Part shown: positions 34,301 to 59,238 of the stretch, piece after piece
Layout of the letters: every line of letters starts with the position of its first letter
Position numbering within the stretch: position 1 is the stretch's first letter
IMG/VR virus record: IMGVR_UViG_3300025577_000005
Location: 1-64,000 of that record
DNA from: a virus
Taxonomy: Duplodnaviria > Caudoviricetes
Length of the DNA stretch: 64,000 nt
Strand: one strand, 5' to 3'
Notes under the pieces: generated by a model
What the model saw: the letters and a program-made list of their open reading frames with translations, nothing else
Databases searched by the model: none
What the model was told of the DNA's origin: nothing
Program-made: the position numbers and the translations under genes

Positions 34301-37300
34301 GATCCTATACCAAAAACATCATAAGTTTGATTATAAACACTATCGATAAATAAAATTTCGGAGAAATTATTTACATTTCTATCAGAGGAACTTATATATC
34401 CAGATTTTTCTAAAGAATAATAAAGTCTTTCTGGCAATCCGGAACTATAATTAATGGTGAATGAAGCATTGGTTGATATTCCTATTGTTCCAACACCAAC
34501 TGTACTAAAAGTTTCTGTAGAACCTGTTGATATAAACTCACTATTAAAATCTTGATCGTAATAAAGTTTAAACTCATATCCAGATAAAGAAGAATCCGAT
34601 AAATCAAATACTAAATTATTATTTGCAATTGTTTGTATTTGTGGATTAATTGGTGATATTGATTGTGAAGGTCCTCCTGTAGAAGCAAAACTTACGACTA
34701 TTGGAGGATTTTTTTGTGAATTAATATAAGTTTCACAGAATTTTATAGTATTTTCGTCAGTTTTATAAATGTAGTATTCTCTCTCAGTATTACCATCTTC
34801 GTAAAAAACTTTATCTCCTGTTATTAATCCATGTTCCGAAATAGTAATTTGATTAGTTATAGTATTGATTCCTGTAGAGTTAAACCCAATAGGATTAATC
34901 ACAATACTATCAATTTTGGATTTGTAAATAACATTAACTGCTATTGAAGTTCCAATACCCACTGAAAGGTTTGGTTTCACATTCATAGTGATTGAATCAC
35001 CCTTAACTAATCCATGCGAATAAGAAGTTGATATTGAAACAGTTGAGGTAATTTTCTCAATTTTTCCAAGTTTTTGTATGTTATTAGTATCGAAATAATA
35101 ATTATCAACATTATCACCTCCTGTTATGAAGAAAACTTCATCGGAAGTGAGAGAAGTTTTTATCCCAATAGTGCTTGGAGACTTATTGACAGCATATACT
35201 GGTTCTGTTGTTGGAAGATTAAATGGGGTTCCTGTAGGAGATGTTGAAATTGAAATTGCATTATTGCCATTTTGACTAAATGTAAGTTTTTGATTAGTTT
35301 GAAGAAAATGATCTTTAATACTAATTCTTTGTGTAGGAATAGATCCTGATATTACCTCCTGACCAAAAGAATATGATACATTATGGCCAGTTCCTGCTGT
35401 TGTACCAAAACCAACCGATTCTTGTGGATTGAAGTACATTCTATTATTAACTTTAGACTCAAAATAATCTACGTTTTGATCAATTGTAAATGTTTTTGAT
35501 TTAAATGATACTGCTGTTCCAACGGTATGTGCAATCCCAGAATTACCTCTTTTTACTCTAAAAATACTTTTATCTGAATATATGTTTAAAACTTCCAAAG
35601 TTTCAGTTCCAATTCCAATACTACTACCAGCAGAAACTCCTGCAGGAATCTGTGATACATATATTTCTGTTGTAGCTGCTCCGGAAGATGCAACTTCTGC
35701 CGTTAATCCTGCATTTGAAATAAATGGAATATTAACTTTAAAGGAATCATTCAATACAGAAAGATTTGAAGTACTAAATCCAGATATTAAAACATTATCA
35801 TTGTTTGACAACGTATGAAAAGGAGAAATTGTTATATTTACTTTATTATCTCCACTCCAAGTAAATACGGCATCATTATAAACTTCATGTAAAGTATCAA
35901 TTTTATCAACTTTTCTTCCTTTTAAAGATGAAACATTGGCATAAATTCCTCCACCGTCAGTATTATCATTATTGAATTTTAATAAATCGTTTACTTTATA
36001 ATTATCTCCATTATTAATAACAGAAATATTGGAAACTGATCCTTTACTAATAGATTCAACTATTACTCTTTGTTTTTTAATTGCATCATTTTCAATAATA
36101 AAATCATTACTAGCGTTCTTTTCTAAAATTTTATACCCTAAAGTATTTCTAGAAAGAGATGAATTATTAAAATCAAATTTTTGATCTAAACTTTGATTTT
36201 CATCAATAGTATTTGATCTAAAAGAATCTCCAATAAAATATGGGAATTGTGGTTCTCCTGTAATTCCATCTACAATTGCATGGTATGCATAAACACCATT
36301 TGGAAAATCTTCTGTCTTTGCAAATCTTCCATTATTTTTGTCTAAATCTCCATTTTGATTATTATAAACATAATCTTCGACAAAAAATCCTAAAGGAAAA
36401 TCAGATATAGATGGTCTGTCATAAACATTGGATATATTTGTAGTATAACCAGATGTCATGGTTTTAATACCAGAACTTACATTCTCCGGATCTACAGATG
36501 AATATGGTCCGTAAATAGGATTCCCATCATATGCCCATCCAATAATGTTAGACAAAGTTGTACCAGTGTCATTAAATGAGGATTGTAAATCTCCAAAATA
36601 TGCAGTTACTGAGTATGATAATTCATCATTTATATCTTTTAATATTTCAGTTTGTTGTGTAGGTAATTTTTGAACTTGATTAACTGTAAGTTCTCTTATA
36701 GATGCGTCTAAAATTTCATTATTACCAGAAGAGATGACTTTAATTACAGTAGAAGTAGAATATCCTATTCCTGCATTAATAATCTTAATATCAGTAATTT
36801 TTTTATCAGAAATTACTGCTCTTAATTTGGCACCACTTCCCGATTCAGTTGGATCAGAAACAATCAAATCTGGAATTGAAGAATATTCAAGTCCTCCAAA
36901 TTGTATATTTGTTTCATTGATAGATCCATTAACTATGATAGGAGTTATTTGAGCATCTCTACCAGTTTTAACCGTTAGAGAAGGTTTTTTCTCAAAATTG
37001 AGAATATTTGATCCATATCCAGTTCCTGGTTCATAAACGTAAATTTGTTCTATAGATCCTTTAACAACTGGTGTTGCTTCTATGGATTGAATTTGTGTCG
37101 ATGTCCCGATACCAACTGCAGTAAACTCAATATTTGCTCTTATGTTTGGATATTTAAACTCTTGGAAACCATTTCCAGTACTATCCAGTTCTTCATAATT
37201 TTGTGTTTCATAATTCGTAATATTTGTTCCTCCAATACCAGCATCACATAATCTAAAAGAATTTTCATCAAGTTTTAAGACATAGTATTGATTTGCAGTT

Positions 37301-54423: not shown

Positions 54424-54535
54424 AATAGTTCATCATTTTGGTGTCACGTTCTGCAAGGAACATCAAATAAGATGACATTGCGAACATCGTGATGATAAAT
54501 GCCAGCATGTATTGAATAAAATTAACCTTACTCAT
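54389..54535 (-). CDS. Small membrane protein (not in ORF track)
   Basis: MSKVNFIQYMLAFIITMFAMSSYLMFLAERDTKMM...; one hydrophobic helix; TGATG coupling. Confidence 0.6.
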   Translation of the reverse strand: MSKVNFIQYMLAFIITMFAMSSYLMFLAERDTKMMNYYDSTIESRVRE

Positions 54536-54804
54536 CAACCTACTGCCATAGGAGTATACTCTGAACGTGGCATTTTGTCAAGATTGAAATCAGTTACCAC
54601 CGCACCATTCGCAATACGTGTGTCCCACTCATTACGTGCATTCAGTGCCGTCACAGTTGAATAAGACTTCAGACCATTAGCATTGAAAGTAACACGTTTC
54701 TGAAAACGTTTGACCACAGTGATCATTCCTTTCTCTTCATCTGCCTCGGCAATGAATGCCTCAGGAAAGAAATCAACCGTGGTGACATTGTTGGTGATTT
54801 GCAT
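54535..54804 (-). CDS. Hypothetical early protein
   Basis: Likely start MQITNNVTTVDFFPEAF at 54804 after promoter cassette. Confidence 0.75.
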   Translation of the reverse strand: MQITNNVTTVDFFPEAFIAEADEEKGMITVVKRFQKRVTFNANGLKSYSTVTALNARNEWDTRIANGAVVTDFNLDKMPRSEYTPMAVG

Positions 54805-54892
54805 GGTGAGTGGTGTTCCCTTGATTACCTCTGTATTATAAGGCATCCTGGTGGGGTTTCAGGACACCCTGTGCCACTTGTTTAGGTGTCCA
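54805..54892 (-). promoter_or_regulatory. Early promoter cassette with stem-loop
   Basis: -10 TATAAT at 54835-54840, hairpin TCCTG...CAGGA at 54846-54864, palindrome GTGCCACTTGTTTAGGTGTCCA at 54871-54892. Confidence 0.75.
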
Positions 54893-55352
54893 TTGCTTCG
54901 GCACTATAGACCGTTGTCTGTGCTAGAAATAGAAACTTCATCATATCATGTTCACTATCACTTTGACCGTCTAATCTCTTTGCAGGATCTAATGTATTAC
55001 CCATTAATATTTTTCCTCCTCCCAATCTTTTCTTACATAGGTCAACATTATCTCTCATAATATCCACACCATAGATATCTTTAAGTGCATCTTCCTCACT
55101 CATATTATGAAACAACACTTTCACCCACTTGACTGCTGTTAGAAACTGACCATCTCCACATGCAGGGTCAAGAACTGTTTTGCCTGATACAAACTCATCC
55201 GTACCACATTCACGAATCATTCTTATCACCAAATCAGTCGGAGTAAAAACCTCGGCTGTTACTTTGACTCTGTATTCGTCACGATTAATCTCACCCATAT
55301 AAGAGTGATCATTCATCCTATTCTTTACTTCATCCCACAATTTGTCTGACAT
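54882..55352 (-). CDS. DNA amino-methyltransferase, SAM-binding half (motifs X, I, II, III)
   Basis: Start MSDKLWDEV; EVFTPTDLV (X), VLDPACGDGQFL (I), IYGVDI (II), GNTL (III); no NPPY/F. Confidence 0.8.
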   Translation of the reverse strand: MSDKLWDEVKNRMNDHSYMGEINRDEYRVKVTAEVFTPTDLVIRMIRECGTDEFVSGKTVLDPACGDGQFLTAVKWVKVLFHNMSEEDALKDIYGVDIMRDNVDLCKKRLGGGKILMGNTLDPAKRLDGQSDSEHDMMKFLFLAQTTVYSAEAMDT

Positions 55353-56253
55353 ACACTCTCTCTTGTTCTGTGATGTTGAAGAAATCAAACACATCATCAT
55401 CACTCATTTTACAATCAATTGGTAAATTTGGCAACCTACAAAATACTTTCTCATTACCAAACCCAGACCATTTTGCAGTCTTGAGAATATACTTCATTAG
55501 CGTACTATTCAGGTTATGTGTTAGATTCTCTCCCGATTCTTTATCATTCACCAACACATAATATACCATATCAGTACCACCTAAAATACCATCATCATAA
55601 ACTGGTTTTGTATATCCACTCCGTGACCACATTACTTTCTTCTTTGATGCCCAATCCTGTCGAATTCGTGAATACCAAGTTTGTTTGTTTGTGTGTAGAA
55701 TTGGATGACTATCAATAAACTCTTGTTTAGTTTTAATGTCACAACAGTTATCCCACTTATTGATGATACCAGTCTCCCGTAGCAAATTCACGTTATGACA
55801 CGTCACATAATCATATCTTACATCAAGGTGCTCTCTTATCTCAAACATTACCTTATTATGAACAGATAAGGCATTTTCTGATAAATCTATAGGCAAATAG
55901 AACACTGAATCATCTATTTTACAGTCAAATGTACCGTCTTGAGTAACAACTTTAGTTTTTTCGATGCCGGGACGGTTGGAGACCATATAGTCGGCGAACG
56001 TGCTTCCCACTTCAGGAAAATAAGTTTTTGTATCTAAGTTCAGAAACTTCACTGCCTTAGACTTAAACAGTTGCAGAATCTTACTGGATGGTGATAAGAA
56101 ACTACTAGGAGAAACCTGAAGGAGAATACCTCCAGGTTTTAACCACTCACTGAATGTTTTCTGTGTAAAGTCAATCCATAGCTTATGTTGTGTCTTCTTC
56201 TTATTGGTAGAATCCTGAAATGGTGGATTCGTTACTATTATATCAAACTGCAT
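55330..56253 (-). CDS. DNA amino-methyltransferase, catalytic and TRD half (Eco57I/TaqI gamma-type motifs IV-VIII)
   Basis: Begins MQFDIIVTNPPF (motif IV); LWIDF, LKPGGILLQVSPSSFL, YFPEV; no motif I. Confidence 0.8.
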   Translation of the reverse strand: MQFDIIVTNPPFQDSTNKKKTQHKLWIDFTQKTFSEWLKPGGILLQVSPSSFLSPSSKILQLFKSKAVKFLNLDTKTYFPEVGSTFADYMVSNRPGIEKTKVVTQDGTFDCKIDDSVFYLPIDLSENALSVHNKVMFEIREHLDVRYDYVTCHNVNLLRETGIINKWDNCCDIKTKQEFIDSHPILHTNKQTWYSRIRQDWASKKKVMWSRSGYTKPVYDDGILGGTDMVYYVLVNDKESGENLTHNLNSTLMKYILKTAKWSGFGNEKVFCRLPNLPIDCKMSDDDVFDFFNITEQERVYVRQIVG

Positions 56254-56336
56254 ATTCTCTTAGAGGTGATTTATTTAATTAAACAAACCAATCTCCAATG
56301 AGAATAATGTCGTTATACTTTATCTGTTAGATTAGA

Positions 56337-57413
56337 TCAAACATACTCACGAAACATATCAATCTTCACATAATTTTCCTCATCCTCAAGATGATTATAC
56401 CCATAAAGTTCAAAATTTGCAAACATTATATGAAGTCGCTCATTAATAAATTCTTCCCTTGTTTCGGGAGAAATATATTTATTTTGCAGAGAAAACTGAA
56501 TAGCAATCTTTGCATAATTAATCAAAGTTTTTCTCCAGGTCTCTCTCATTGTTTTCACTTCTTCTGCCGTTTGTGCTTTTTTAGTGAAAATAATGTGACG
56601 AATCTTATTATTTGGATTCATAAACAAATTCCACAATTTAGCAGGAGCATTTGCGCCAGCGTCATCCATACAAATCAAACTGACTTTATATCCATCATTA
56701 CCATTTCCAAGTTCATGATCTTTGACTTCTTGCTTAATTACTCTCTCATCTTTATCATTGATTTTCACAGCAGTGGAAAATCCTTTGTTTACTAAATTTC
56801 TGATAGTTCCCCTTGGAACTTTATGCCAAAATACCTGATTGATTCCAAACTCTGTATCATAAGCATGATCAAATTCATCATCCCCATAGATAATTTCTCC
56901 GGTCACAGGATTAACGGGTTGCCCATGATACCAGGAAATACCTTTATCTTTTTGTGCCCACATTTGTTGTGCAATTTGCTTCATACTCAATTCTCTATGT
57001 GGTTTATGTTGCAGATCAGCAGACATCGCCTCAGAAAATGATGATATTCTTTCATCATATCCCTCAACAGGTGTCATTAACCTAGTTGGATAATACTTAT
57101 ATCCATTGTTTTTAAGAATATTATGACGAGTTCTAGCACTCTTTCCTGAAACATTATTTGTCCCAGGGATAGGAACTGCATGTCCTGGTTCAAAAGAATG
57201 ATCAAATCCCGTTGCTTGTAAATTACTCTCTACTTTTTCATAATTTGTGTGATCATTTATTTTAGTATTTGCATCACACTCATAATCAGACTCCCAATTT
57301 TCAATTGGGATCATCTTAACATCTCCACCATCAATCCATTCATACCCCTCTTTACAATCGGGTGCTTTTGGAAATTTTTGTGCGTTAATTACGCCGAAGG
57401 AATGCTTACTCAT
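56337..57413 (-). CDS. Putative ParB/Srx-domain protein
   Basis: Likely start MSKHSFG behind its own promoter; VESNLQATGF...P...SARTRHNILKNNGYKYYP and later AMSADLQHKPHRELSMKQIA resemble the ParB N-terminal pattern. Confidence 0.5.
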   Translation of the reverse strand: MSKHSFGVINAQKFPKAPDCKEGYEWIDGGDVKMIPIENWESDYECDANTKINDHTNYEKVESNLQATGFDHSFEPGHAVPIPGTNNVSGKSARTRHNILKNNGYKYYPTRLMTPVEGYDERISSFSEAMSADLQHKPHRELSMKQIAQQMWAQKDKGISWYHGQPVNPVTGEIIYGDDEFDHAYDTEFGINQVFWHKVPRGTIRNLVNKGFSTAVKINDKDERVIKQEVKDHELGNGNDGYKVSLICMDDAGANAPAKLWNLFMNPNNKIRHIIFTKKAQTAEEVKTMRETWRKTLINYAKIAIQFSLQNKYISPETREEFINERLHIMFANFELYGYNHLEDEENYVKIDMFREYV

Positions 57414-57435
57414 TGTTTTTTTAAAGGTTGTTTCA

Positions 57436-57464
57436 AGAATACCATGTATATATGAATCTTTCAA
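57436..57464 (-). promoter_or_regulatory. Sigma70-type promoter
   Basis: TTGAAA-17 bp-TATTCT with TGn extension. Confidence 0.6.
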
Positions 57465-57483
57465 GTGAGTTTGAAAGATTCAT
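57452..57483. repeat. Perfect 13-bp inverted repeat
   Basis: ATGAATCTTTCAA-gtgagt-TTGAAAGATTCAT. Confidence 0.85.
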
Positions 57484-57503
57484 TAATAAATCAAAACATT
57501 AGA

Positions 57504-58646
57504 CTACATATAGTCTTTTAATTTAAGATACATGTTTGTAGATGTTGCAAGTTCTTTACTCTTACGTGGTCTTCTTTGACCCCACTTAAGCATAAACTTT
57601 TTACCTTTATCATTCTTTTCACGAACACCCTCAAACTTTGGTTCATTGGTTGCAAACCATGCTCCATTCTTTTGCAGTGTGCATGGTTGATTAATACTAA
57701 TGATTACACCATCAGCATCACAGATATGATAGAAAACTGATTGTCCTCTACTCTCCAACTCAACATGAGTTGCTGCCTTTACACGATTGCAAAGTTTATG
57801 ATAATCCTCATTAGTAACAGAGAATAGATATTCACCTTTACCAAGACAGAGTAGATGCTCATCAGATACTAAACCAGTTGCTTTCTGCATTCTACCAAGA
57901 ACCGATTCATTAGGTAGAAATGAAAGTGCCTCAACAACAAGAGGTGCAACTTCAGTACCAACAGAAGAACAATCCTTCTTCCACTGATCTGCTACATTTT
58001 CATAATGCTCTGCCTCTGGACTATTAATATAGTAGTCACGAATACTATCATTAATATTATCCAACTTACCAAAGAAAGGAAGTAATTCAGGATATTGTCT
58101 CATTACAAGTCCATCACGATACTCTCTATTGCTTCCCTTAAACTTTACACCATAAGGTGAAATATACATTCCAGGAGAACAATCAGTATTATCAAATAAG
58201 ATGTTATTTAATGTAGAATTAAATGTTCCTGAACATACCTGAATAGAAGAATATCCATTCTGATAATTCTTAACACTAACAGAGATTTTCTCACCATCAT
58301 CAAAATGAATAAGAATATCACCTTTCTTTCCTAAATTGCGATACTCTGTATCTACACACTGAAAATAAAACTTACGATCAGGATATTTCTTAATAAGATC
58401 CTGAACTATAGACTGATATGTTGCTTCTATATTTTTAGAATACTTACTCTTAGAGAACTTAGTCTCAATATTACCGTCTACACATGCCTTCTCAAATTCC
58501 TTATTGATTTCTGAAGAAATGCTCTTAGAGGCAACTCCTAATCTCTCTGCCTCTTCTTGTAAACGTGCGGTCAATCGAATCTCTGCTGCATCTTGAATAT
58601 AATGCTCGATTGATGTTCCTGCACCTTGCTTTTTTGTTTTGGACAC
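57504..58646 (-). CDS. Putative PD-(D/E)xK-family (restriction-like) endonuclease
   Basis: GTG start with AGGAG RBS; KKGDILIHFDDGEKISVSVKNY fits the D...SxK active-site variant; N-terminal helix with Glu (DAAEIRL). Confidence 0.5.
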   Translation of the reverse strand: MSKTKKQGAGTSIEHYIQDAAEIRLTARLQEEAERLGVASKSISSEINKEFEKACVDGNIETKFSKSKYSKNIEATYQSIVQDLIKKYPDRKFYFQCVDTEYRNLGKKGDILIHFDDGEKISVSVKNYQNGYSSIQVCSGTFNSTLNNILFDNTDCSPGMYISPYGVKFKGSNREYRDGLVMRQYPELLPFFGKLDNINDSIRDYYINSPEAEHYENVADQWKKDCSSVGTEVAPLVVEALSFLPNESVLGRMQKATGLVSDEHLLCLGKGEYLFSVTNEDYHKLCNRVKAATHVELESRGQSVFYHICDADGVIISINQPCTLQKNGAWFATNEPKFEGVREKNDKGKKFMLKWGQRRPRKSKELATSTNMYLKLKDYM

Positions 58647-58699
58647 AATTACAATCTCCTTAAAGACTAATGTTGATCGGGGATTTCTCCCATGAATCT

Positions 58700-58756
58700 A
58701 ATATATCACCGATTCATGGTAATGTCAAGCATCTGAACCGGTTTGCCGACTGGCAC
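58700..58756 (-). promoter_or_regulatory. Promoter with cassette palindrome
   Basis: TTGACA (58723-58728)-17 bp-TATATT (58700-58705); palindrome GAACCGGTTTGCCGACTGGCAC at 58735-58756. Confidence 0.75.
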
Positions 58757-58759
58757 ACT

Positions 58760-59176
58760 CTATTCCTCATTTAACCACTGATCATATAGCCTTACTTCTT
58801 CCTTCCGTGCCTCAATTTCATGTGGTTGATCCCAATAATCATAATTCTCCACCGGTTCCTGACAATACCTCATTTTTCCATGATGAAACCGCAGAGAACC
58901 ACCTACCCACTGTGCCAGATGAGTCAGTTCATGAAAAAGAGTTTTTATATACATCTCCTCAGACATACGTGCCTGAAGTTCAATCAAGAAGTGTCGTGGC
59001 CGATAATCATTACCAATCACATCACAATACCCAACAACACCATCACGTTTGAGACCTTTATGTTCAATCTCTACCACAATTTTGTGTCGTGGGAAAAATT
59101 CACTCAAAAACCAATGGGCAATATCCTCACACCGTTTTTGAGAATAACCGTATCCACTATGAAAGATGTAAGACAT
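58760..59176 (-). CDS. HExxH zincin-like metalloprotease
   Basis: TLFHELTHLAQW and YWDQPHEIEAR. Confidence 0.75.
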   Translation of the reverse strand: MSYIFHSGYGYSQKRCEDIAHWFLSEFFPRHKIVVEIEHKGLKRDGVVGYCDVIGNDYRPRHFLIELQARMSEEMYIKTLFHELTHLAQWVGGSLRFHHGKMRYCQEPVENYDYWDQPHEIEARKEEVRLYDQWLNEE

Positions 59177-59238
59177 GTTCCCCAATGTAAAACCCAGATA
59201 AAAGATGATAAGAATAAAAGTTTTTCTTTAGCAGTCAT
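59104..59238 (-). CDS. Small hydrophobic protein (not in ORF track)
   Basis: MTAKEKLLFLSSFIWVLHWGTCLTSFIVDTVILKNGVRILPIGF; ATGA coupling; overlaps next gene by 73 nt. Confidence 0.5.
   Translation of the reverse strand: MTAKEKLLFLSSFIWVLHWGTCLTSFIVDTVILKNGVRILPIGF

Follow-up and report, generated by a model that had tools for sequence, protein, structure and literature searches.

Overlapping genes carrying the motifs of a DNA methyltransferase

The window analyzed here is a 64,000-nt stretch of viral DNA (Caudoviricetes; positions 1 to 64,000 of IMG/VR record IMGVR_UViG_3300025577_000005, which has 89,431 bases and is estimated to be 42% complete). It contains two overlapping open reading frames (ORFs), ORF-A and ORF-B, both on the minus strand, that between them carry the motifs of a DNA methyltransferase (MTase), with the catalytic set in the upstream gene and the S-adenosylmethionine (AdoMet)-binding set in the downstream one. 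Unless another genome or locus is named, all coordinates are those of the window, and those of the features discussed are collected in Table 1.

The N-terminus of ORF-A reads MQFDIIVTNPPF, and motif IV (NPPF) occupies residues 9-12. These four residues (N9, P10, P11, and F12) are nearly invariant across 26 sequences. The Pfam family Eco57I matches ORF-A above the cut-off (E 9.1e-8), over profile positions 73-159 of 171 only, i.e., from motif IV onward. There is also a weak match to TaqI_C that falls below the cut-off (E 0.018), and phrog_3689, labeled "DNA methyltransferase," aligns over profile positions 66-339 of 348. Comparison of the ORF-A sequence with solved structures returned nothing meaningful. 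As a side observation, nine additional residues (around NKWDNCCDI) are inserted in the recognition region of ORF-A (residues ~166-176, window ~55720-55750) in the window and a few close relatives with a length of 307 amino acids (aa), and they are missing from the 298-aa majority.

The complementary motifs are found in ORF-B: X (AEVFTP), I (VLDPACGDGQFL, with DPACGDGQF), II (IYGVDI), and III (MGNTL). Both AEVFTP and DPACGDGQF are invariant across 14 sequences. The match of ORF-B to the Pfam family N6_Mtase passes the cut-off (E 1.4e-6) and covers only the N-terminal part of that profile (24-94 of 311), and a profile built for B matches residues 12-91 of M.BseCI (E 2.4e-4). Among the PHROG families, ORF-B matches phrog_21201 and phrog_4376, which are families of small proteins, as well as the C-terminal end of phrog_11371 (280-363 of 383). 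Neither A nor B alone has a complete Rossmann fold.

The two genes share 23 nt, B being read in the +1 frame with respect to A, and a purine tract lies 3 nt upstream of the B start codon. In a preliminary description of this locus, made from the sequence without database searches, ORF-A was said to start at motif IV, ORF-B to carry X and I-III, and the two to overlap by 23 nt in different frames. This anatomy proved correct in every detail when examined by ORF, Pfam, and junction analyses.

Conservation of the split pair

Relatives of the pair were sought by ORF-A search of viral contigs, which yielded 23 IMG/VR loci with 58-89% identity. A homolog of ORF-B directly follows A in all 23, and it is in the +1 frame in each of the 22 loci with an intact A. 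In the window and 21 of these 22 loci, the B ATG lies 20 nt before the first base of the A stop codon; in L028 the distance is 17 nt. The ATG itself is kept in 23 of 23 junctions (the window plus 22 loci) and is preceded by a purine-rich tract; in the same set, A ends in either TGA or TAA, with differing codons (GGA, GAG, GAA, TGC) ahead of the stop. Given the E-values of the family matches and the recurrence in 23 of 23 loci, the split layout is far beyond chance. The remaining locus, L029 (1827-2716), has a frameshift inside ORF-A, where the tblastn match is split over two frames at about residue 150; this is either a decayed copy or a sequencing error.

Ratios of nonsynonymous to synonymous substitution rates (dN/dS) were calculated pairwise by the Nei-Gojobori method for the window and 15 loci; L009, L011, L012, L015, L017, L023, L026, and L029 were set aside as near-duplicates, truncated, or frameshifted. 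Of 120 pairs, 99 were usable for A and 102 for B, with median dN/dS values of 0.138 and 0.166, respectively, and purifying selection acts on both genes. A search of a large protein collection gave 615 matches to A at E ≤ 1e-3. Among the 120 A matches listed, 114 are 290-311 aa long, and the other six are 209-284 aa.

Two RNA libraries and two DNA runs, from three studies in all, yielded contigs that span 54823-58700 without a single mismatch or gap. At least half of the sampled words are present in 17 runs from 13 studies, indicating near-identical DNA.

Single-chain homologs and lineage

A search with ORF-B among longer proteins recovered 10 that measure 445-509 aa and share 52-61% identity with B. 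They have motif IV at the start and motifs X and I-III at the end, and thus hold in a single chain the permuted order seen in the window. The linker in these fused forms is variable in length (~20-45 residues) and is found where the window has the stop-start overlap. The same arrangement occurs in orf67 of Aeromonas phage ZPAH1 (386 aa), in which the Eco57I motif IV match is at residues 2-22 and the match to the N-terminal part of N6_Mtase is at residues 283-360, and in P0278, P0154, and P0181. Because single-chain homologs exist in the permuted order, the window pair is best seen as the split form of a permuted, TaqI/CamA-like gene of the gamma lineage. The preliminary description had rightly argued that a frameshift in a gene of ordinary gamma order cannot give the order observed, and had proposed a search for fused homologs in either order; the relevant relative, which it missed, is the permuted single-chain gene.

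Three-dimensional likeness to gamma-class enzymes was tested on the fused homolog P0131 rather than on the window pair. The P0131 model (predicted local distance difference test [pLDDT] 88.5, predicted template modeling score [pTM] 0.88) matches the solved structures of CamA (E 2.8e-10) and M.TaqI (E 7.7e-10; template modeling [TM] score 0.47 by target), and also BrxX/PglX and M.BseCI. By comparison, no match to PF01555 was found at E ≤ 0.1 for either ORF-A or ORF-B, using the MTase of Synechococcus phage S-SKS1 as a positive control (3.5e-36). The only families that match A and B are those of amino-methylases, and not those associated with cytosine-C5 chemistry. The gamma order X, I-III, IV-VIII, target-recognition domain (TRD) in one polypeptide was found neither in the window pair nor in its fused relatives. 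Thus, as judged from family matches and the structural model, the lineage is gamma-like and the motif order is that of class beta. This agrees with the preliminary assignment of the motifs to the gamma class (Eco57I, N6_Mtase, and M.BseCI matches, and the likeness of the P0131 model to CamA and M.TaqI), and with its statement that the gene order is that of the beta-class permutation, which holds for the order of the genes and within the fused single chains. The NPPF motif and the family matches point to N6-adenine as the probable target.

The pair may be a living intermediate of circular permutation, as suggested in the preliminary description. In a tree built from 30 A-domains, split forms are scattered among fused ones, but the tree is weakly supported (a quick tree with 7 of 27 inner branches starred, all four outgroup branches saturated, an unreliable root, and "split" rows from the protein database assigned by length only), and we claim no direction of change from it.

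A predicted complex of A and B

We predicted the structure of a complex of A and B using a separate alignment for each chain. The ipSAE values of the A + B model were 0.85, 0.85, and 0.86, and the best control reached 0.00; the ipSAE mark applied is reached by 58 of 80 solved complexes and by two of 110 mismatched pairs. At least 94% of contacts are shared between runs, and the partner has a pLDDT of 82 or more. The tightest contacts in the model are between A residues 3-8 (beta4, just before NPPF) and B residues 57-63 (beta1, just before DPACGDG). In the methylase fold, beta1 and beta4 lie side by side in the middle of the sheet, at the place where AdoMet comes together with the target base (see also PMC7544214). 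The pairing of A beta4 with B beta1 means that, in the model, the canonical central sheet is rebuilt from two chains, i.e., the reconstituted Rossmann fold for which the preliminary description had suggested looking is predicted. The model thus suggests that A and B assemble with each other.

Distribution of putative half-enzymes

Of 1.84 billion cluster representatives, 1831 matched the B profile at E ≤ 1e-3; the threshold of 1e-10 was reached by 445 of them and that of 1e-30 by 24. Among the best 150 of the 1831, 142 are no longer than 261 aa, seven are long proteins matched at the C-terminus, and one (310 aa) is matched at the N-terminus. Judging from these profile matches, standalone B-type halves are very common in metagenomes. 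B-type matches were also found in 57 records of isolated phages. Grouped by the word with which the organism name begins, 20 of these are Synechococcus, 17 Aeromonas, 11 Klebsiella, and 4 Prochlorococcus, and five are others. The products PKO111 gp115 and ACG-2014f gp191 carry the RefSeq label "DNA methyltransferase."

The arrangement of the halves differs among these phages (Table 1). An overlapping pair occurs in P-SSM2, and in the T4-like enterobacterial phages PKO111 and PSD9 the A half is fused behind a GIY-YIG domain that is LEM-3-like (E 2.7e-15 and 3.8e-9, respectively). In the latter two cases a nuclease may thus be joined to a methylase for which a separate subunit binds AdoMet. In Synechococcus phage Bellamy the halves are interrupted by gp87, which has no family match, and the N-terminal extension of gp86 has no clear glycine-rich motif I. 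The most extreme case is that of ACG-2014f, a cyanomyovirus: because the two halves are ~99 kb apart in a complete genome, the enzyme, if it works, must assemble in trans. The A half of ACG-2014f directly follows an 892-aa gene annotated as "cytitidyltransferase," which we note as a side observation.

We also considered whether one B half could serve two A halves in P-SSM2, which has a second Eco57I-type match, PSSM2_187. This was rejected, as PSSM2_187 has its own motif I.

Cassette and genomic setting

The window is syntenic with S-SKS1 in 11 pieces with 87.9% identity, corresponding to 150.5-164.5 kb of the S-SKS1 genome. The split pair lies in a variable stretch between two conserved flanks. 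At the same locus, S-SKS1 (NC_020851.1, L001 6304-7735) has a 176-aa ORF that overlaps the gene for the PF01555 beta-class methylase by 23 nt. (A PD...ECK-like motif was read by eye in that 176-aa ORF.) Conserved flanks around different content in S-SKS1 place the split pair in a swappable cassette, and the site looks like a hot spot for the exchange of restriction-modification cassettes. At the downstream edge of ORF-B (54806-54882), contigs from four runs stop or fork: short contigs and loose ends pile up, and longer ones diverge into other sequence. This fits the presence in natural populations of several cassette variants that share the gp73-like flank. A literature search on S-SKS1 found nothing relevant.

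The cassette includes two further genes upstream of A (Table 1), and their context had escaped the preliminary description, which did not mention restriction-modification. A homolog of the 380-aa ORF is found upstream of A in 23 of 23 loci, and its stop codon ends on the first base of the A ATG in 11 of the 18 loci measured. There was no match to this ORF in Pfam, PHROG, or NCBIfam, and its comparison with solved structures by sequence gave nothing meaningful. Its structural model (pLDDT 87.2) is most like HinP1I (Z 7.7, root-mean-square deviation 5.2, 218 aligned; and Z 6.7) and MspI (Z 5.8), followed by other PD-(D/E)XK nucleases. Foldseek likewise gives HinP1I (E 1e-2, prob 0.95), and the Atlas leads are RE_HaeIII / R-HINP1I. 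On these structural likenesses, the 380-aa gene probably encodes a Type II endonuclease, and the cassette would then probably be a phage-borne restriction-modification unit. The 375-aa ORF between this gene and A is optional, with homologs at the same position in eight of 23 loci in addition to the window. It has no Pfam, PHROG, or NCBIfam match, and the Atlas leads to ParB_N are weak (TM 0.37-0.45).

A possible cassette promoter is located at 58700-58728. It should be noted that this is a consensus match only, as 24 such sites were found versus 20.2 expected in shuffles, which is not significant alone. In the scan for promoters and terminators as a whole, sites were no more frequent than in shuffled sequence.

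Table 1. Features of the putative split MTase locus and comparable arrangements in other phages (positions in the window, unless a locus handle or another genome is given)
Feature	Position	Strand	Description
Putative MTase subunit A (ORF-A)	55330-56253	minus	307 aa; starts at motif IV; catalytic half plus TRD-sized C-terminal region
Putative MTase subunit B (ORF-B)	54882-55352	minus	156 aa; motifs X, I, II, III; AdoMet-binding half
A/B junction	55330-55362	minus	A stop TGA (55330-55332), B ATG (55350-55352), purine tract GAGAGAG (55356-55362)
Variable cassette	54847-58759	minus	Between conserved flanks
Flank, gp73-like gene	54535-54846		90.5% nt identity to S-SKS1
Flank, 141-aa gene	58760-59185		72% aa identity to S-SKS1
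Putative Type II endonuclease, PD-(D/E)XK, HinP1I/MspI-like	57504-58646	minus	380 aa; invariant K108-G-D110 ... S122 ... K126
Optional ORF between endonuclease-like gene and A	56337-57464	minus	375 aa; ParB_N-like as lead only
Promoter-like site	58700-58728	minus	TTGACA, 17 nt, TATATT, with TG; 54 nt upstream of 380-aa ORF
P-SSM2, split pair			193-aa ORF starting MKFTLAIGNPPY, then 132-aa B half; overlap 20 nt
Klebsiella phage PKO111 gp114	L003 1024-2511		GIY-YIG domain fused to A half (495 aa), then B half; overlap 14 nt
Shigella phage PSD9 ORF103	L006 985-2484		GIY-YIG domain fused to A half (499 aa), then B half; overlap 17 nt
Synechococcus phage Bellamy	L031 1638-3853		gp86, A half with 121-aa N-terminal extension; gp87, 187-aa ORF; gp88, B half
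ACG-2014f_Syn7803C7 (NC_047712.1, complete genome)	35905-36309; ~135335-136213		Only B-type match; only Eco57I-type match; ~99 kb apart
P-SSM2, PSSM2_187	L034 797-1441		214-aa complete small MTase with motif I and GNPPH; adjoins gp41 and mazG; unrelated to the split pair

Interpretation and alternative explanations

Considering the observed gene anatomy, its conservation, the purifying selection, and the fused same-order homologs with their structural family, we think it likely that A and B form a translationally coupled, two-subunit N6-adenine MTase of gamma lineage and permuted order, and that this enzyme is the modification half of a phage Type II-like restriction-modification cassette. The cassette, located in an island of an S-SKS1-like cyanophage, would comprise a HinP1I/MspI-like endonuclease, the optional ParB-like gene, and the two MTase subunits (M-A and M-B) in that order. 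All of these genes are oriented head to tail on the same strand, and the gaps or overlaps between them are short, an arrangement suggestive of a single transcription unit.

The following mechanism is proposed. Ribosomes that complete A would reinitiate, without frameshifting, at the B start codon located in the final 23 nt of A, and this would give roughly matched amounts of the two chains. A would supply beta4 with the NPPF loop, beta5-7, and the target-recognition domain, and B the motif X helix, beta1-3, and the AdoMet-binding loop. Docking via A beta4 and B beta1 would produce the central sheet and a composite active site, in which NPPF of A may hold the flipped adenine and the glycine-rich loop of B may hold AdoMet, with the TaqI-like C-terminal domain of A reading the DNA. 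Phage DNA would be marked by the enzyme, after which the cassette nuclease, if active, would cut only unmarked host or competitor DNA, and the methylase would thus have a self-protection role.

Several points weigh against the two-subunit enzyme and its place in such a cassette. The purine tract before the B ATG also codes for the conserved A residues E-x-E-R, and thus its conservation is not independent evidence of a ribosome-binding site. The complex score may stem from the model's memory of solved single-chain methylases, in which case it reflects likeness, not binding. The halves in ACG-2014f are only ~22% (A) and ~33% (B) identical to those of the window, and their partnership is assumed. 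Contigs from RNA libraries are no proof of transcription, given that DNA may be present in those libraries. Finally, the structural scores behind the endonuclease assignment are middling (Z 7.7; Foldseek E 1e-2), and the protein matches no sequence family.

There are other ways to read the pair. A and B may be two real proteins that do not make one methylase, with A being, for example, a dead DNA-binding or specificity factor or a nuclease partner, and B an independent small AdoMet-binding protein, as might be imagined from the occurrence in some phages of small B-type proteins with no adjacent A. We consider this unlikely: NPPF is nearly invariant and the AdoMet loop invariant, neither half makes a complete Rossmann fold, A and B are strictly adjacent in 23 of 23 loci, and the predicted interface is the canonical beta4-beta1 pairing. 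Somewhat less likely still is that programmed +1 frameshifting near the end of A makes a single permuted A-B polypeptide, and that this is the active enzyme. The preliminary description, which proposed a heterodimeric MTase or a living intermediate of circular permutation, had also allowed for such fusion. B is in the +1 frame in every overlap seen (window relatives, PKO111, PSD9, and P-SSM2), both frames are open for 38-80 nt before the A stop, and single-chain homologs in permuted order do exist. However, a constant phase is expected from common descent alone, and thus it favors neither mechanism. The junctions of the window and 22 loci have no conserved shift site, given the variation in the stop and the preceding codons, whereas the B ATG is kept in every one. 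Furthermore, the natural fused linkers are much longer than a shift here would yield, and in ACG-2014f and Bellamy, where the halves are far apart or interrupted by a gene, fusion cannot be needed. The suggestion of frameshifting thus fares poorly, and that of a heterodimer is favored by the conserved pair and B ATG, the purifying selection, the predicted interface, and the distant halves of ACG-2014f.

The remaining alternatives question whether the split gene is functional or real. A once-fused permuted gene could have been broken by a frameshift, leaving a decaying remnant with no present function; fused relatives of the same order are known, and L029 has an additional frameshift in A. Such decay is very improbable and we rejected a pseudogene on the basis of conservation and dN/dS: the split is kept in 23 of 23 loci over protein identities of 58% to 99%, the ratios are low (0.14 and 0.17), and there are 615 A-type proteins, mostly of uniform length (114 of the 120 listed), and 1831 B-profile representatives, with 142 of the best 150 being short. 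A sequencing or assembly error in one ordinary gene, which the preliminary description had named as a result that would overturn its reading, has a probability close to nil. The contigs of four runs are identical across the junction, the same structure recurs in 23 independent IMG/VR contigs, and no single indel recovers an ordinary gene of gamma order. Misassembly is thus ruled out.

Beyond the two-subunit enzyme itself, a wider scenario may be entertained, although we hold it only tentatively and regard it as rather doubtful. A TaqI-like methylase would have been cut in the middle of its Rossmann fold into an AdoMet-binding and a catalytic/recognition module, with halves that heterodimerize whether their genes overlap, are interrupted (Bellamy), or lie ~99 kb apart (ACG-2014f), and repeated re-fusion in swapped order would have given single chains of beta topology from a gamma ancestor. 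If this were true, the free AdoMet-binding module (1831 representatives at E ≤ 1e-3) would be a widespread, portable phage half-enzyme.

Relationship to known systems

The window pair is closest to the gamma-class MTases (M.TaqI, CamA, M.BseCI, Eco57I modules, and BrxX/PglX), which it resembles in sequence families, in NPPF and DPACGDG, and, through its fused homolog, in fold. The weak TaqI_C match suggests that the C-terminal recognition region of A is TaqI-like, as in that class. Gamma-class enzymes are single chains with the order X, I-III, IV-VIII, TRD, whereas the window pair runs IV-VIII, TRD, X, I-III and is divided into two chains where the halves adjoin. The linear order, with motif IV first and motif I last, is that of the beta class (M.PvuII, M.RsrI, M.MboIIA, M.EcoGII, and MT-A70; PF01555), for which motif order serves as the class definition in sections of one source (PMC7544214). 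Unlike beta-class enzymes, the window pair has no PF01555 similarity, has gamma-class kin, and is made of two chains. Given this sequence and structural kinship, its order looks like an independent permutation.

Natural two-polypeptide methylases are represented by the C5 enzymes M.AquI and M.EcoHK31I, which are encoded by adjacent or overlapping genes, according to passages of PMC3404938. The window likewise has two conserved adjacent genes (23 of 23 loci), each with part of the motif set. However, M.AquI is cut in the variable region and its subunits are colinear with monomeric enzymes, and M.EcoHK31I is also a C5 enzyme, whereas the window pair appears to be an amino-methylase divided in the fold core, between beta3 and beta4, with permuted gene order. 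Fragments of engineered M.HhaI, M.SssI, M.MpeI, and M.BspRI are capable of complementation, and permuted forms can retain activity, as reported in portions of two sources (PMC3404938; PMC5944983). These are laboratory C5 constructs, whereas the family of the window pair is natural and has been conserved by selection. Parts of two sources (PMC7544214; PMC4738411) treat the circular permutation of methylases as classical. Halves of the kind described here are already held in phrog_3689, phrog_21201, phrog_4376, and phrog_11371, two of which are labeled "DNA methyltransferase," and these are bare labels. In the full-text literature we found no description of a natural split permuted amino-methylase, divided in the fold core and coexisting with fusions of the same order; subscription journals and REBASE were mostly outside this search, and a prior description is possible.

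Biological significance

Permuted motif orders of DNA MTases are a textbook case of circular permutation, for which the usual explanation is duplication followed by truncation, as tested with laboratory constructs. Here, one natural and abundant family holds split halves in swapped order, unlinked halves, and swapped-order fusions, together with close gamma-class structural kin. With several states in one family, a fission-and-fusion route to circular permutation becomes directly testable.

If A and B do make one enzyme, hundreds of small phage proteins labeled "hypothetical" or "DNA methyltransferase" would be half-enzymes that need a partner, which would affect methylome prediction and the annotation of restriction-modification systems in phage and metagenome data. 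A naturally optimized split adenine methylase could also be a scaffold for targeted-methylation tools. For the biology of marine cyanophages, the locus contributes a candidate restriction-modification cassette that is carried by a phage and located in a swappable island.

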